From contig JBFLWB010000140.1 in assembly GCA_040758155.1 (NCBI GenBank), positions 1-60,388 of the forward strand: a DNA stretch of 60,388 bases, in the 5' to 3' direction. A program made the translations under genes and the position numbers. Below are positions 7,832 to 54,921 of the stretch, piece by piece; positions within the stretch are counted from its first letter, which is position 1; the number at the start of each line of letters is the position of its first letter. The stretch comes from Thermodesulfobacteriota bacterium (GTDB lineage Bacteria > Desulfobacterota > Deferrimicrobia > Deferrimicrobiales > Deferrimicrobiaceae). Under the pieces are notes generated by a model. That model ran no database searches and had not been told where the DNA came from. It was given only the letters and a program-made list of their open reading frames with translations.

Positions 7832-7906
7832 TGGAGCGGGCGACGAGATTTGAACTCGCGACTTCGACCTTGGCAAGGTCGCACTCTACCGCTGAGTTAC
7901 GCCCGC
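7832..7906 (-). tRNA. tRNA-Gly (anticodon GCC), CCA encoded
   Basis: Minus strand reads GCGGGCGTAACTCAGCGGTAGAGTGCGACCTTGCCAAGGTCGAAGTCGCGAGTTCAAATCTCGTCGCCCGCTCCA. It folds by hand into a cloverleaf: 7-bp acceptor, anticodon loop TTGCCAA, GTTCAAATC T-loop, discriminator U. Confidence 0.95.
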
Positions 7907-29498: not shown

Positions 29499-30416
29499 TC
29501 AGGGGAGGAAGCTCCCCCGGTACTCCTTCACGCCGCGGATCCCCTCCCGGGCCAGGAAATCGCGGATCCCCTCGACGATCTCGATGCACGCGTTCGGGTT
29601 GCGGAAATTGGCCGTCCCGACCTGTACCGCGGCCGCCCCGACGAGGAGGAACTCGAGCGCGTCCTCCGCGCTCCGGATCCCGCCGATCCCGATCACGGGG
29701 ATCTTCACCGCCTTGCACGCCTCCCACACCATCCGCAGCGCCACCGGCTTGATCGCCGGCCCCGAAAGCCCCCCCGTCACGTTGCCCAGCCGCGGCCGCC
29801 GCGTCCGCGGATCGACCGCCATCCCCAGCAGCGTGTTGACGAGGGAGACCGCGTCTGCGCCCGAGTCCTCCGCCGCGCGGGCCATCTCCCCGATGTCGGT
29901 GACGTTCGGGGACAGCTTCACCCAGAGCGGCTTCGCGGTGGCCGCGCGGACCCTCCGGGTCAGCCCGTACAGCCCTTTCGCGGTGGAGCCGAACGCGATG
30001 CCGCCTTCCCTCACGTTGGGGCAGGAGACGTTCAGCTCGACCGCGGCCAGGGCGGGAACCGCGGACAGCCGCCGCGCGACCTCCTCGTATTCCTCCTCCG
30101 TCCGCCCGTAGATGTTCGCCACGAAGACGGCCCCCGCGTCCTCCAGCCGGGGGGCGACTTCGCCGATGAACCTCTCCACCCCGATGTTCTGCAGGCCGAT
30201 GGCGTTCAGCATCCCCGCCGGAGTCTCCACGATCCGCTGCGGCGCGTTCCCCCGCGTCGGGAGGAGGGAGAGCCCCTTCACGATCACCGCGCCGAGGCGG
30301 GAGATGTCGTAGAACGGCGCGAATTCCAGCCCGTATCCGAACGTCCCCGAAGCGCTCATCACGGGATTCTTCAGGAGCAGGCTCCCCACCCGCGCGGTCA
30401 GGTCCGGGGTCACCAT
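29499..30416 (-). CDS. pyrD: Dihydroorotate dehydrogenase B, catalytic subunit
   Basis: 3' part of track ORF 29499-31094, starting at MVTPDLTARVGSLLLKNPVMSASGTFG. NVSCPN and GGLSGPAIKP motifs. 7-nt overlap with the pyrK stop. Confidence 0.93.
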   Translation of the reverse strand: MVTPDLTARVGSLLLKNPVMSASGTFGYGLEFAPFYDISRLGAVIVKGLSLLPTRGNAPQRIVETPAGMLNAIGLQNIGVERFIGEVAPRLEDAGAVFVANIYGRTEEEYEEVARRLSAVPALAAVELNVSCPNVREGGIAFGSTAKGLYGLTRRVRAATAKPLWVKLSPNVTDIGEMARAAEDSGADAVSLVNTLLGMAVDPRTRRPRLGNVTGGLSGPAIKPVALRMVWEACKAVKIPVIGIGGIRSAEDALEFLLVGAAAVQVGTANFRNPNACIEIVEGIRDFLAREGIRGVKEYRGSFLP

Positions 30417-31225
30417 ACGACCTCCCGGGCATCGAACACCGGCCCCTCCTTGCAGACGCGCCGATAGGCGGTCCCGTCCCCTTCCCGCACCTCGGTCACG
30501 CATCCCCAGCAGACGCCGAACCCGCAGGCCATATGGTTCTCGAGCGACACCTGCGCGGGAACGCCCCGGGAGCCGGCCGTCTCCGCGATCTCCCGGAGCA
30601 TCTCCCTCGGGCCGCACGCAAGGATCGACAGCCGCCCGGCCTCGGGGGGCTTCAGGGCCTCGAGGCGGGCGCGGAGCGCGGCGCCCACCGTCCCGTGGAA
30701 GCCGGCGGTCCCGTCGTCGGTGCACAGGTGCACCCTGCCGGGCACGTTCCCCCCCGGGGTCCAATCCCGCGGGGGAAGCTGTTCGCGGGTCCGCGCGCCG
30801 AGGAACATCTCGAAATCGCTCCGTCCCTGCGAGAGGGCCATCCCGGCGGGGAACACCGTGGAGAAGCCGACACCGCCCCCCGCGAGCCACCAGGTCCGGT
30901 CGGGATCGTCGAGCCGGAAGCCGTTCCCCAGCGGCAGGGTGATGGACAGGGGGTCGCCCTCGTGCAGGCCGGACAGCAGCGCCGTGCCGCGCCCGACCAC
31001 CTTGTAGACGAACTCGACCGTTCCTGACACCCGGGTCCCTCCCGACCGGAAGATCGCGAGCGGCCTCGGGAGGAGCGGGTCGTTCCCGGGCCACCCCGAT
31101 ACCATGGCGAACTGTCCGGGCACGAACTCGACCCGGTCGGGGACCGCCACCTCCATCCGGTAGAAGATTCCGTGCCCCACGTTCCGCAGGATCCTGCCGC
31201 CGACGAACCGCGGATTAGCTCGCAT
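30410..31225 (-). CDS. pyrK: Dihydroorotate dehydrogenase B, electron-transfer subunit
   Basis: 271 aa. PGQFAMV, LPRPLAI, and C-terminal 2Fe-2S cysteines MACGFGVCWGC...C. The start codon lies inside the repeat element (see findings). Confidence 0.88.
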   Translation of the reverse strand: MRANPRFVGGRILRNVGHGIFYRMEVAVPDRVEFVPGQFAMVSGWPGNDPLLPRPLAIFRSGGTRVSGTVEFVYKVVGRGTALLSGLHEGDPLSITLPLGNGFRLDDPDRTWWLAGGGVGFSTVFPAGMALSQGRSDFEMFLGARTREQLPPRDWTPGGNVPGRVHLCTDDGTAGFHGTVGAALRARLEALKPPEAGRLSILACGPREMLREIAETAGSRGVPAQVSLENHMACGFGVCWGCVTEVREGDGTAYRRVCKEGPVFDAREVVW

Positions 31226-31527
31226 TTCTCACCAGCCTCCTACTGCGGCGGCGGATACGGGCACACCTACTGCGTTGTGCCCCTCCCGCCGGGAACGGCA
31301 TGATGGTGCCGGCGTCCGGGGGTACCCCAGGGAGCGTTTCTTGCCCGGGAGTGGGGCGCTCGGTCGGGCTCCTCGACGCACTGTCAAGTGCGCCTCCGGG
31401 GCCCTCGGTCGCGACGCCTTGTAGTGCTGCCAGGATGGCAGCATGCCGCGGAGGCCATGGATGGCCGGGAGCGGCCCACGCCCGTCTCCACCGCCTCGCT
31501 ACGGACGCTGGTGAGAAATGCGAGCTA
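31216..31527. repeat. Copy 1 of a 257/302-nt hairpin-rich element with terminal inverted repeats (candidate structured ncRNA or MITE)
   Basis: Core is 31221-31522. Termini are CGCATTTCTCACCAGC and GCTGGTGAGAAATGCG, extended by TAGCT/AGCTA. Near-identical to 54662-54918 except for a 45-nt insertion (31367-31411) and a few point differences. Confidence 0.85.
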
Positions 31528-31965
31528 TGTGGCATCCCTGTCCCGTATCTCCCGGGAGAGCAGCAGCGCGTCCTCCCCCGTGTCGGTGTAGTACCCTCTC
31601 CGGATCCCCTGGAACGCGAAGCCCAGCCGCCCGTAAAGCCGCTGCGCCTCCTCGTTCCCGGCCCGGACTTCGAGGTGGATCCGTTCCGATCCCGCCAGGG
31701 CCCCCCTGCGGATGCACTCCCGGACCAGGGCTTCCCCCACCCCCTGTCCCCGGAAATGCGGGTGCACCGCGATATTCAGGAGATGGGACTCGCCGGCGAC
31801 GTTCCAGCAGACGGCGTAGCCGAGGATCTCCCCCGGGGCCCCCTCCGCGACGAACGGCCGGGAGAAGGGACGGTCGATGTCCTCGGCGAACATCCCGCGG
31901 GACCAGGGCGTCGGGAAGGAGGCCTCCTCGATCGCCATCACCCCGTCGAGGTCGCAGGGGGCCAT
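31525..31965 (-). CDS. rimI: Ribosomal-protein-alanine N-acetyltransferase (GNAT)
   Basis: 146 aa. IEEASFPTPW and the acetyl-CoA motif RGQGVGEAL typical of RimI. Confidence 0.85.
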   Translation of the reverse strand: MAPCDLDGVMAIEEASFPTPWSRGMFAEDIDRPFSRPFVAEGAPGEILGYAVCWNVAGESHLLNIAVHPHFRGQGVGEALVRECIRRGALAGSERIHLEVRAGNEEAQRLYGRLGFAFQGIRRGYYTDTGEDALLLSREIRDRDAT

Positions 31966-40335: not shown

Positions 40336-40443
40336 AGCCGGCGGGGGACACACCTGTCGGGGCAGAGGGGGACAGACTTAGCTTCAAACACGGGATGAAG
40401 GGTTAAGTCTGTCCCCCGCCTGGTATGTCCCCCTCTACCGGCT
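40336..40443. repeat. Nested palindromic element filling the queA-tgt spacer
   Basis: Four arms share GGGGGACA/TGTCCCCC: 40336-40350, 40364-40380, 40404-40420 and 40426-40443. The inner stem is a perfect 14 bp, GGGGGACAGACTTA/TAAGTCTGTCCCCC. A related copy lies at 52281-52340. Confidence 0.8.
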
Positions 40444-51863: not shown

Positions 51864-52277
51864 ATGGCGTTTCGCAATCCGCTCCCCACCGCCGACATGA
51901 TCATCGAGGTGGGGGACCGCATCGTCCTCGTCCGCAGGAAGAACCCTCCCGAGGGATGGGCCATCCCGGGAGGGTTCATCGAGGAAGGGGAAGCGGCGGA
52001 GTCCGCTGCCGTCCGGGAGGCCCTGGAGGAAACGGGGCTCTCCGTGGAGCTCGTCGCGCTGCTCGGCGTCTACTCCGATCCTTCGCGGGACCCGCGGTTC
52101 CACACGATCTCGACGGTCTACATCGGCAGGGCGGAAGGAAGCCCCGCCGGCGCCGACGACGCCGCGGAGGCGCGCCTGTTCGGCGAGGGGGACCTGCCCT
52201 CTCCCATCGCCTTCGACCACGCGAAGATTCTCCGCGATTACTACATTTTCAAAAAAACCGGGAAGCGACCGATGTGA
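51864..52277 (+). CDS. NUDIX hydrolase
   Basis: Internal start at MAFRNPLPTADMII (ATG 51864), preceded by GGGAGGA. Nudix box GGFIEEGEAAESAAVREALEETG. Confidence 0.85.
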   Translation: MAFRNPLPTADMIIEVGDRIVLVRRKNPPEGWAIPGGFIEEGEAAESAAVREALEETGLSVELVALLGVYSDPSRDPRFHTISTVYIGRAEGSPAGADDAAEARLFGEGDLPSPIAFDHAKILRDYYIFKKTGKRPM

Positions 52278-52280
52278 ACT

Positions 52281-52340
52281 GGCGGAGGACACACTTCCCC
52301 TTCATCCCGCGTTTGAAGCGAAGTATGTCCCCCTCTGTCG
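52281..52340. repeat. Second member of the GGGGGACA-type palindromic element family
   Basis: GGCGGAGGACACACTT - CCCCTTCATCCCGCGTTTGAAGCG - AAGTATGTCCCCCTCTG. It aligns, loop included, with the minus strand of 40364-40420. Lies between the convergent NUDIX and aminotransferase stops. Confidence 0.6.
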
Positions 52341-52348
52341 CCCGTGCC

Positions 52349-53541
52349 TTACGACAGCGCCTTGACGGCCTCCTCGATCCGGTCGATCCCCTTCTCGATG
52401 TTCTTCATCGACGTGGCGTAGGAGAGCCGCTGGCAGGCGTCGTCGCCGAACGCGACGCCGGGAACCGACGCCACCTTGTGGTCCGCCAGCAGGTAATCCG
52501 CAAAGTCGGCCGAGCCGTTGATCGTCTTGCCCGACGGCGTTTTCTTCCCGTAGCAGCCGGAGAAGTCCGGGAACACGTAGAAGGCCCCCTGCGGAAGCAG
52601 GCACCTGACGCCTGGCATCGCGTTGAGCCGCTCGACGATGTATCGGCGCCGCCGGTCGAACTCCTCGATCCACTGCTTCATGAAATCCTGCGGCCCGTTG
52701 AGCGCCTCGATGGAGGCCTTGTCGCAGAACGAAACGGGATTGCTCGTGCTCTGGGACTGGATGTTGGTCATCGCGGCGACGAGGTCCTTTTCCGCGGCGA
52801 CGTATCCGATCCTCCATCCGGTCATCGAGTGGGACTTGGACAGGCCGTTGACGAGGATCGTCCGCTTCCGGATCTCCTCGCCCAGCGACGCGATGGAGAC
52901 GAACCGGAAGCCGTCGTACACCAGCTTTTCGTAGATCTCGTCGGACAGCACCGTGATGTCGTTCTTTACGACGACCTGCGCCAGCGCCTCGAGCTCCGCC
53001 TTCGAGTAGGCGGCGCCCGTGGGGTTGGAGGGGCTGTTCAGCACGAGGAGCTTGGTCCTCGGCGTGATGGCGTTGGTGAGCTGCCCCGGGGTGATCTTGA
53101 ACCCCGTGGACTGCTTCGCCTCGACGATCACGGGGGTTGCGCCCGCCAGCAGGGCGATGTCCGGGTAGGAGACCCAGTAGGGCGCGGGGATGATCACCTC
53201 GTCCCCCTCCTCGAGGAACGCCTGGGCCACGTTGTAGATCGAATGCTTCGCCCCCACCGAAACGATGACGTTCTCCCGCTGGTACGTCAGGCCGTTGTCC
53301 CGCTTCAGCTTCGCGATGACGGCGTCCTTCAGCTCCGGGGACCCCGGGACCGGCGTGTACTTCGTGTACCCGTCGTCCAGCGCCTTCTTGGCGACGGCCT
53401 TGATGTTGTCCGGAGTGTCGAAATCCGGCTCCCCCGCCCCGAAACCGACGACGTCGATTCCCTGGGCCTTCATCTGCTTGGCCTTGTTGGTGATCGCCAG
53501 AGTCGCCGAAGGCTGGATCTTGCCGACCCTCTTCGCGAGCT

Positions 53542-54045: not shown

Positions 54046-54591
54046 TCAAGGGACCTCGAAAAATGAGACGCGGGTGTCTCCGTATCGTTTCTCGGAAACC
54101 CGGATCCATCCGCCCGGCGCCGGCGCCGCCTCCCTGGCGGCGCTTTCCGCGACCACGATCGCGCCGGGGTCGAGGATCCCCGCCCGGCGGATCTCCTCCC
54201 CCGCCCGCTCGAGCAGCCCCTTTCCGTAAGGGGGGTCGAGGAACACGAGGGAGAACTTCTCCCCCCCGGCCGCCAGCCTCCGCAGCGCCTTCCGGTAATC
54301 CATGGAAAGGCATGCCGCCTGCGGGGCGCCGACGGCAGCGAGGTTCGCCTTCACCGCTTCGACCGCCGGGGGGAACGATTCCACCAGCACGGCGGTTGCG
54401 GCCCCCCGGGAGAGCGCCTCGATGGCCATGGCGCCCGTCCCGGCGAACAGGTCCAGCACCCTCGACCCGACGACCCGCTCGCCCAGGACCGAGAAGACCG
54501 CCTCGCGCACCCGGTCGGTCGTCGGCCGGACCGCCATCCCGCGCGGCGCGCGCAGCGTCCTTCCCTTCCACCTTCCGGCGACGACCCGCAA
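54046..54591 (-). CDS. rsmD: 16S rRNA (guanine966-N2)-methyltransferase
   Basis: 181 aa. RPTTDRVREAVF, DLFAGTGA and FLDPPY motifs. TTG start. Confidence 0.88.
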   Translation of the reverse strand: MRVVAGRWKGRTLRAPRGMAVRPTTDRVREAVFSVLGERVVGSRVLDLFAGTGAMAIEALSRGAATAVLVESFPPAVEAVKANLAAVGAPQAACLSMDYRKALRRLAAGGEKFSLVFLDPPYGKGLLERAGEEIRRAGILDPGAIVVAESAAREAAPAPGGWIRVSEKRYGDTRVSFFEVP

Positions 54592-54658: not shown

Positions 54659-54921
54659 GCCCGCATTTCTCACCAGCCTCCTGCTGCGGCGGCGGATACG
54701 GGCACACCTACTGCGTTGTGCCCCTCCCGCCGGGAACGGCATGATGGTGCCGGCGTCCGGGGGTACCCCAGGGAGCGTTTCTTTCCCGGGAGTGGGGCGC
54801 TCGGTCGCGACGCCTTGTAGTGCCGCCAAGGAGGGCGGTATGCCGCGGAGGCCAGGATGGCCGGGAGCGACCCACGCCCGTCTCCACCGCCTCGCTACGG
54901 ACGCTGGTGAGAAATGCGGGC
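54659..54921. repeat. Copy 2 of the 257/302-nt hairpin-rich element with terminal inverted repeats
   Basis: Core is 54662-54918, with the same 16-nt termini as copy 1, extended by GCC/GGC. Same orientation as copy 1. Lacks the 45-nt insertion. Confidence 0.85.

Follow-up and report, generated by a model that had tools for sequence, protein, structure and literature searches.

A 60,388-nt stretch of DNA from a Thermodesulfobacteriota bacterium (hereinafter, the window) contains two copies of a repeat, each with a short hairpin whose two arms differ between the copies in a paired manner. The locus raises the question of why this pairing is maintained, and on which strand it matters. The two hairpins are as follows.

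31426-31442, plus strand: hairpin of copy 1, GCTGCC-AGGAT-GGCAGC; stem 31426-31431 / 31437-31442, loop AGGAT
54822-54839, plus strand: hairpin of copy 2, GCCGCC-AAGGAG-GGCGGT; stem 54822-54827 / 54834-54839, loop AAGGAG

Between copies 1 and 2, T-A at stem position 3 becomes C-G and the G-C basal pair becomes G-T, and the loops are unlike in both sequence and length. A preliminary description of the window had reported both sequences, their coordinates, the exchange at position 3, the basal G-T and the freely changing loop, and all of these facts check out.

The two copies belong to a family of MITE-like mobile repeats

The two copies belong to a family of non-coding, MITE-like mobile repeats. 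Scanning one genome per species with the end sequence yielded 103 loci, most of which are MITE-type copies and a few of which are chance matches without the RCCC flank. The hosts are MAGs labelled Deltaproteobacteria, Candidatus Deferrimicrobiaceae, Nitrospirales, Nitrospira, Pirellulales, Terriglobales and Thermoanaerobaculia, together with a few MAGs of Gamma- and Alphaproteobacteria. The element is thus present in several phyla, with several copies per MAG.

Copies are 43-333 nt long, the most frequent length between the repeat ends being 170 +/- 1 nt. Internally deleted forms span 43-96 nt (including derivatives of 43-65 nt), and longer forms span 194-333 nt. The element ends are RCCCGCATTTCTCACC. 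Of 71 copies, 69 have the inverted repeat extended by four bases, RCCC...GGGY; 57 copies have G-C as their outermost pair, 12 have A-T, and 1 has a non-complementary G/T. TA is found on both sides in 43 of the 71 copies, in the context YTAR, and the remainder are one-base variants. The duplicated target could be TA (2 bp) or YTAR (4 bp), of which TA fits better.

At locus L039, the element lies in one of four paralogous 2.3-kb segments, and the other three are empty. The empty sites read GCAGCC-CTAA-CCTTC, while the filled site reads GCAGCC-TTA-[element]-TCA-CCTTC. The element is therefore shown directly to be an insertion, at CTAA. Four features that define a MITE are found, namely small size without coding capacity, terminal inverted repeats, target-site duplication, and dispersed copies with presence/absence differences. 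The 106-aa ORF that spans copy 1 has no homologues among 5.8 billion proteins.

No transposase-encoding autonomous partner with the same ends was found among the 103 loci, in plasmids or in viral contigs. Two loci with single-ended hits, L023 and L053, were considered as autonomous insertion sequences and rejected, both being truncated copies (solo ends). The solo end of L023 adjoins gcvH/folD-like ORFs and that of L053 a PIN-domain-like gene, as assigned by inspecting the translations. Neither the canonical element nor insert B (see below) gave more than chance matches in PLSDB plasmids, and queries of viral contigs with the element end and with a 33-nt unit (see below) gave no match. An exact-protein look-up of the rimI-like gene beside copy 1, made to find strains without the insertion, returned no record.

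At gathering score, the sole match of the whole window in Rfam 15 is a tRNA at 7835-7906, and at a permissive threshold (E <= 10, 31150-31600) there is no useful match. A literature search by the exact terminal repeat strings returned unrelated primer matches only, and no paper on a bacterial repeat. Judged by exact-string searches of the literature and by Rfam, the family appears undescribed.

Both copies are composite members of the family

The anatomy of the two copies is as follows.

31218-31525: copy 1 of the MITE-like element, 308 nt when its 4-nt ends GCTC/GAGC are counted; inserts A and B added to the canonical rod
54659-54921: copy 2 of the MITE-like element, 263 nt, ends GCCC/GGGC; inserts A and B, without the 45-nt apex hairpin
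31222-31236: left terminal inverted repeat GCATTTCTCACCAGC; partners at 31507-31521 (copy 1) and 54663-54677 / 54903-54917 (copy 2)
31277-31355 (copy 2: 54718-54796): insert A, a 79-nt optional side branch; also in L003, shorter in L107
31367-31411: apex segment, 45 nt, with the conserved apex hairpin (GCACTGTCAAGTGC); of the two copies, in copy 1 only
31425-31475 (copy 2: 54821-54871), plus strand: insert B, a 51-nt optional module with two GGA-loop hairpins
31445-31475 (copy 2: 54842-54871), plus strand: second hairpin of insert B, GCCGC-GGA-GGCC-ATGGAT-GGCC-GGGA-GCGGC

Copy 1 is flanked by TA at 31216-31217 and 31526-31527, and the flanks of copy 2 are degenerate, with CT/CG in place of TA/TA. 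One 45-nt gap aside, the copies are ~96% identical. The apex segment has been deleted from copy 2 between direct repeats GGGGCSCTCGGTCG, and the placement of the deletion is ambiguous by 14 nt. The 15-nt repeat GCATTTCTCACCAGC has four exact matches in the window, two per copy and in inverted orientation.

Inserts A and B were delimited by aligning the window copies with the 170-nt forms, and both window copies are composite members, made of the canonical core plus modules. Their predicted folds are very stable (z = -5.4 to -7.3). Public metagenome and metatranscriptome contigs contain joints that omit exactly 79-80 nt and 51-52 nt; because the joints skip exactly those lengths, forms with and without insert A or insert B coexist in nature. 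Insert B is common to the window copies, L045, L048, L106 and L107, and the hairpin in question is the first of its two hairpins. The second hairpin has a C.A mismatch on the plus strand in copy 2. Other subfamilies carry inserts of their own; that of L070, a 65-nt palindrome with TTAG at its flanks, resembles a nested insertion.

Predicted start and stop codons lie at the element ends

Copy 1 lies between two minus-strand genes with Pfam support, a GNAT acetyltransferase (rimI-like, 31525-31965) and a pyrK-like gene (30410-31225). The neighbours of copy 2 are divergently oriented: an rsmD-type methyltransferase (54046-54591, minus strand) and an mqnA-type gene (from ~54951, plus strand). Simple consensus scans, which are crude for such an organism, detected neither promoter-like nor terminator-like sites within the two copies; a promoter-like site that would serve the rsmD-like gene is located just outside copy 2.

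Two coding signals coincide with the ends of copy 1.

31223-31241, minus strand: outward AGGAGG-N10-ATG inside the element end; AGGAGG at 31241-31236, then 10 nt, then ATG at 31225-31223
31525-31527, minus strand: stop codon TAG of the GNAT (rimI-like) gene, made of the element's last base and the flanking TA

The ATG in the element end is the first and sole plausible start codon of the pyrK-like ORF. Similarly, at L059 the ATG in the element end is the only possible start of a DnaE-like polymerase gene, which makes at least two ordinary genes with such a start. The junction forms the TAG/TAA stop of a flanking gene in ~22 of ~50 elements by a rough gene call. The element ends, with a stop re-created together with the TA flank and with an outward AGGAGG-N10-ATG, thus look suited to intergenic life. 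Orientation relative to co-directional flanking genes has no bias (14 to 13, from a rough ORF-based gene call).

The hairpin pairs on the plus strand in every variant

Additional copies of insert B were collected by a metagenome scan with a pattern anchored on both flanks and with the hairpin left unconstrained, which gave two more copies. Genome loci and the metagenome scan together gave five distinct variants of the hairpin.

W1 (copy 1): GCTGCC-AGGAT-GGCAGC
L045 / L048, plus one contig of run X5: GCTGCC-AGGGAT-GGCGGC
W2 (copy 2): GCCGCC-AAGGAG-GGCGGT
L106: GCTGCC-AGGGAC-GGCAGT
L107: GCGGCC-AGGGAT-GGCTGT

The collection of more copies had been proposed in the preliminary description, and these copies extend the series of pairs at position 3 on the plus strand to U-A, U.G, C-G and G.U, with G-C or G.U as the basal pair. 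Uncompensated changes that disrupt the stem, named in the same description as what would speak against a conserved structure, are absent on the plus strand: all 30 of 30 cells across the five variants are standard pairs. The W2 form is also present in contigs of four other metagenomes, in copies that retain the apex. It is therefore not a one-off and has been propagated to other samples.

A 6-bp hairpin per se is common and unremarkable in this DNA, with 2.7 per kb in the window versus ~2.0 per kb after shuffling. The covariation of the hairpin comes from a single pair that changes on both sides, and the observed score was matched in 42 of 500 shuffles. With five variants, the covariation is not statistically significant and is suggestive. 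The strand signal of the hairpin itself consists of 3 or 4 events (roughly p = 0.1) and is weak.

Copy 1 and copy 2 differ in 11 of 264 aligned columns, and five of these differences fall in the 18 columns of the hairpin (Fisher p = 3e-4). The hairpin is thus a local divergence hot spot and the fastest-changing part of the repeat. Two further differences form a second compensatory pair between the copies, in the terminal stem, where 31220 T/C changes with 31523 A/G.

A hot spot of this kind, together with the non-significant covariation test, is what would be expected if the hairpin were under no selection and its paired changes came from template switching (arm-to-arm correction) or from conversion or recombination with other repeat units. 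Related units with quite different stems exist elsewhere and are possible donors. Moreover, the U.G of L045/L048 is a plain single transition, and the C-G of W2 is the expected product of arm-to-arm correction. The G.U of L107 at position 3, however, needs two transversions, and template switching would yield a perfect pair instead. In addition, no pair is broken on the plus strand in 30 cells, and the A(N)GGA(N) loop closed by C-G is kept while the stems vary. We regard this neutral origin as unlikely, though it deserves serious weight.

Taken together, structural constraint on the hairpin is plausible but not proven; the pattern fits such constraint, and it also fits exchange between units or a mutable palindrome. 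The earlier conclusion that the structure is selected therefore stands in part: plus-strand pairing is kept through changes on both arms and the repeat as a whole is clearly constrained (see below), but the covariation of the hairpin alone is matched by shuffled alignments too often to carry it. The accompanying argument, that paired changes are not expected from neutral drift of a dead repeat, is overstated here. The repeat belongs to a mobile-element family, and palindromic repeats can yield paired changes without selection.

The backbone is constrained and favours the opposite strand

The canonical core is a rod-shaped hairpin of 170 nt, and representatives of four subfamilies each fold into one rod. 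Across 46 canonical copies from different phyla, 96.2% of cells are paired, and changes on both sides are found at 17 of 30 predicted pairs, in 138 cells; 0 of 500 shuffles scored as high. In the Delta group, 58 pairs are 98.5% paired, and again 0 of 500 shuffles scored as high. There is no doubt that the repeat as a whole is structurally constrained. Sequence is kept across phyla at the ends (~30 nt each) and at the apex (TCGACGTAGTG.TCAACTACGCC), while the stems between the ends and the apex differ in sequence and covary. The conserved apex TTGACA (minus orientation) was considered as a promoter and rejected, as inspection of the folds showed no -10-like hexamer downstream.

The element is no symmetric palindrome: a profile of it gives 150-170 bits for one orientation but 30-40 for the other. 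In 47 of 51 distinct copies, the strand complementary to the window plus strand has the better fold, by a mean of 17.5 kcal/mol. For the Delta group, alifold gives -92.7 kcal/mol for the strand complementary to the window plus strand versus -59.9 kcal/mol for the other. Over the union of predicted pairs, G.U cells number 84 on the strand complementary to the window plus strand versus 32. A simple arm-to-arm alignment gives a modest G.U excess only (209 to 150), and the energy and alifold comparisons are much clearer. The few copies without strand asymmetry are carriers of insert B, whose wobbles are on the plus strand.

The C/A mismatch between GGCGGCGG (within 31245-31254) and CCACCGCC (31488-31495) is present in the window. 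It had been read in the preliminary description as a wobble of the minus strand, consistent with the family, where 16 of 17 copies of the Delta group keep it as a minus-strand U.G. The functional strand had been called ambiguous, and with good reason: the wobbles of the hairpin fit the plus strand, the backbone favours the minus strand, and copy 1 lies between two minus-strand genes. Because both of these genes are on the minus strand, the likely transcript through copy 1 carries the complement of the GGA loops. The gene context of copy 1 thus argues against a function of the hairpin in host mRNA there.

The folding asymmetry is consistent (47 of 51 copies) and yet the element is found in both gene orientations (14 to 13), which would tie the asymmetry to the element and not to host transcripts. 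This could reflect constraint at the level of DNA, with the element needing to form a cruciform, or to fold from one particular strand of single-stranded DNA, in order to be recognised and moved; side hairpins would then be tolerated only if they fold on themselves and do not disturb the rod. The nearly perfect covariation of the terminal base pair is in line with this possibility. On the other hand, no transposase or recombinase partner was found among the loci, plasmids and viral contigs searched, so that no mechanism can be named, and terminal inverted repeats with a duplicated TA are typically the work of cut-and-paste transposases, whose substrate is double-stranded DNA. The wobbles of the hairpin are on the strand opposite to the one that the backbone favours. 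Fragments of the element are also present in metatranscriptome contigs, which indicates that the RNA probably exists, though such libraries can carry DNA. Constraint of DNA folding is therefore improbable as the main reason for the pairing.

The stable predicted folds, the strong covariation of the backbone and the fragments in metatranscriptome contigs would also be expected of paralogous genes for a free-standing structured RNA of ~260-300 nt (a small RNA or riboswitch-like leader), but this very improbable reading is largely refuted by the lack of an Rfam match and of promoter-like or terminator-like sites in the scans above, by the multiplicity of copies in a genome, their TA flanks and terminal inverted repeats, the empty sites and the derivatives of 43-65 nt, and by unrelated flanks and gene neighbourhoods in both orientations.

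Insert B resembles CsrA-binding hairpins and is related to tandem arrays

The loops of the first hairpin of insert B (AGGAT, AGGGAT, AAGGAG and AGGGAC) follow the pattern A(N)GGA(N), and each is closed by C-G. The core CA(R)GGAUG is found in three of the five variants (W1, L045/L048 and L107). The second hairpin has the loop AUGGAU, also closed by C-G, with GGA and GGGA in internal loops. In total, insert B contains four GGA in 51 nt on the plus strand and zero on the opposite strand. The SELEX consensus of CsrA is RUACARGGAUGU, with GGA in a hairpin loop (PMC4347634); its ACA is only partly matched here, by CCA.

Several GGA in loops are thus found, as in Csr/Rsm RNAs, while a match to a curated family and a promoter or terminator of the insert's own are not. 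No Csr/Rsm family of Rfam matches over the whole window, nor at E <= 10 on 31150-31600, and a crude motif scan found no csrA in the window. MAG MFD04716.bin.1.102, from which L045 and L048 come, carries a csrA homologue; this has a 1-nt frameshift, which is taken to be a putative assembly error. The loop pattern suggests that insert B is a candidate CsrA-type binding module.

The 33-nt stretch 31444-31476, which contains the second hairpin, is also found outside the element, in tandem arrays. In contigs of soil and sediment metatranscriptomes, its depth is 370-380 versus up to ~50 for the element backbone in the same run. Contigs contain joints that step back by 33 nt, with 18-20 letters between, namely GAAGGGCAGGAGCCCGAG, GCCGGGGAGGAGCGCAAG and GCTTGGTCAGGGATGGACTT. 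Insert-B-like units therefore exist outside the element, in tandem and in RNA-derived libraries. In several contigs, the sequences that adjoin the 33-nt unit are short hairpins with different stems and with AGGA, AGGGAG, AGGGAT or AUGGAU loops. A CRISPR reading of the arrays was rejected, as each 18-20-nt 'spacer' is a hairpin in its own right and has a conserved loop. The proposed tandem unit consists of the 33-nt conserved stretch with its hairpin, and of a short hairpin whose stem varies and whose loop is A(N)GGA(N). Insert B may be one unit captured from a separate tandem repeat of GGA-loop hairpins. That these arrays are a family of tandem GGA-loop hairpin RNAs, acting as a putative CsrA/Rsm-type sponge from which insert B was captured, is a speculative reading to which we give little credence.

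Comparison with known repeats

The element resembles Correia elements (CREE) of Neisseria and the ERIC/IRU elements of enterobacteria, which are MITEs, in being ~100-200 nt long and non-coding with terminal inverted repeats. By description, as distinct from sequence comparison, it also resembles them in folding over its whole length into a hairpin, in being intergenic and in having co-transcribed copies. Larger variants of ERIC with extra internal segments exist. As in the element here, ERIC-type repeats have 5'-TA-3' at both ends (PMC3184786). Unlike Correia and ERIC elements, the element described here is found in uncultured Deltaproteobacteria/Deferrimicrobiaceae, Nitrospirales, Pirellulales, Terriglobales and others, has termini and an apex that are conserved across phyla, and has ends with an outward AGGAGG-N10-ATG and with a TAG/TAA stop re-created together with the TA flank.

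The bcr1 element of the Bacillus cereus group is a mobile intergenic repeat of ~155 nt in which compensatory changes are reported to preserve the double-stranded structure of its RNA (PMC3184786). The preliminary description had noticed just this phenomenon, although bcr1 has 5-bp direct repeats and differs in sequence, host phylum and fold. Chunjie, a MITE of Geobacter uraniireducens, is 178-235 bp long, has very stable predicted RNA folds and inserts into operons without breaking them (PMC10969869, PMC3184786). It is likewise a deltaproteobacterial MITE with very stable predicted folds. Identity with Chunjie was rejected, as Chunjie is A+T-rich with 21-bp terminal inverted repeats and 9-bp direct repeats, whereas the element here is G+C-rich with TA flanks. 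In pneumococci, 36 genes have their stop codon encoded by a BOX repeat (PMC3049150), similar to the junction of the element here, which forms the stop of many flanking genes; the sequences are unrelated.

The hairpins of insert B are similar to the CsrA/RsmA-binding hairpins of CsrB and RsmY/Z, with GGA in loops, the core CA(R)GGAUG and clustered motifs, and tandem arrays of GGA-loop hairpins occur in RNA-derived contigs. Unlike CsrB and RsmY/Z, insert B lacks a Csr/Rsm match in Rfam and transcription signals of its own in the scans above, and it is embedded in a mobile repeat. Binding by CsrA is putative, and CCA stands in place of the ACA of the consensus. The second hairpin of insert B is, like REP/BIME, a G+C-rich imperfect palindrome of ~31 nt that occurs in clusters. 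The arrays here, however, are direct, with 18-20 nt between units, and not alternating, and the sequences are unrelated.

Discussion

The hairpin is a side branch of an optional module in a small, non-coding, mobile (MITE-like) repeat, and we lean somewhat towards the view that its pairing is kept since the element functions, modules included, in a folded single-stranded state. That strand would be RNA when transcription of neighbouring genes runs through the element, and possibly DNA while it transposes. The key feature of the branch may be the A(N)GGA(N) loop that is closed by C-G and displayed on the plus strand, of the kind bound by CsrA/RsmA; that this loop is what matters is a more tentative proposal, based on the loop sequences, and is doubtful as it stands. 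Several observations count against the explanation as a whole: there are only five variants with one covarying pair, the hairpin is a hot spot of divergence, its wobbles are on the strand opposite to that of the backbone, and the orientation of flanking genes is about even (14 to 13).

For 'covariation' between two copies of a mobile, palindromic, multi-copy repeat, conservation of structure is expected and paired changes are possible without selection. Most of the interest of the locus lies in the gene-friendly ends of the element and in its possible link to arrays of GGA hairpins. Start codons and gene borders lie inside the repeats, which matters for the annotation of genomes, and the ends bear on the question of how small mobile repeats reshape operons. 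If the GGA-loop module binds a CsrA-type protein, it would provide a route for spreading sites of post-transcriptional control. If, further, insert B is a unit of a sponge, binding sites for a global regulator of translation would be dispersed through the genome by the mobile repeat.

An element end supplies a start codon

The start codon of the pyrK-like ORF is supplied by the end of the element at copy 1 in the window. The feature concerned is as follows.

Window 31223-31241, minus strand: AGGAGG and ATG within the element end, at the start of the pyrK-like ORF

Specifically, the first codon of the ORF is an ATG within the terminal repeat, with AGGAGG located 10 nt upstream, and no in-frame ATG, GTG or TTG other than this terminal-repeat ATG is present upstream of Met24. 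Excision of the element and one TA in silico (window 31525-31535) yields ...GGGATGCCACATAATCC... This brings back an ancestral ATG of the pyrK-like ORF, which overlaps the stop codon of the rimI-like gene. The N-terminus, reconstructed as MPHNPRF before the insertion, now reads MRANPRF.

A DnaE-like gene at a locus from another genome likewise begins at the terminal ATG of an element (L059:4508-4510, minus strand), and the PHP domain of its product starts at residue 7 counted from that ATG. About 20 of the flanking ORFs face outward and extend to an element; 12 of them lie in the ATG frame, nine of these 12 at the AGGAGG end.

A stop codon is re-created at the element junction

Joined to the first base of the element, which is G or A, the flanking TA forms a stop codon again (TAG or TAA). 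According to a rough ORF-based gene call, this junction codon serves as the stop of a neighbouring gene in ~22 of ~50 elements, including the following case in the window.

Window 31525-31527, minus strand: junction stop codon of the rimI-like gene

A second repeat pair in the window

The window also contains a separate repeat of ~63 nt, present in two copies, each with a 14-bp stem and a loop.

Window 40363-40425, plus strand: first copy
Window 52275-52337, minus strand: second copy

The stem, GGGGGACAGACTTA/TAAGTCTGTCCCCC, encloses a conserved 22-nt loop, GCTTCAAACRCGGGATGAAGGG. The two copies differ by one compensatory change, in which A-T becomes C-G, and by one change to a wobble pair. 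The copy at 52275-52337 lies directly past the stop codon of an ORF ending at 52349, and a T-run follows ~17 nt beyond the copy. No match to the pair was found in Rfam at gathering score.

The insert B unit outside the element

A 33-nt stretch (31444-31476), which contains the second hairpin of the optional module insert B, is also present outside the element in public metagenome and metatranscriptome runs (X25-X27, X1 and X39). There it forms direct tandem arrays, in which the units are separated by GGA-loop hairpins of 18-20 nt. In a soil metatranscriptome, the 33-nt unit reaches a depth of 370-380, whereas the element backbone reaches at most ~50 in the same run.

Loci in other genomes

Three loci from other genomes have features of their own.

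L070:2836-3070: 65-nt palindrome in a Pirellulales element copy, with a perfect stem and TTAG on each side
L039:1004-7757: four tandem paralogous segments spaced ~2.3 kb apart
L020:4336-4496, minus strand: csrA homologue in MAG MFD04716.bin.1.102

The 65-nt palindrome, AGCCTGGGGACAGAACG...CGTTCTGTCCCCAGGCT, appears to be a further small mobile palindrome that sits inside the element. The four tandem segments are 93-95% identical around the element insertion site, and just one of them is occupied by the element. The csrA homologue carries a 1-nt frameshift (GACGACGTTACGTGACC), which may be an assembly error.

Terminal stem and strand asymmetry

The terminal stem contains a second compensatory pair between the window copies (copy 1, 31218-31525; copy 2, 54659-54921), T-A at 31220/31523 in copy 1 and C-G at 54661/54919 in copy 2. 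C-G at this pair is the norm of the family (65 of 71 copies).

The complement of the window plus strand folds more stably in 47 of 51 family copies, with a mean gain of 17.5 kcal/mol; the exceptions are copies bearing insert B. The element is found in either orientation relative to genes. This strong asymmetry between strands could originate from the element's own RNA or from a single-stranded DNA stage.
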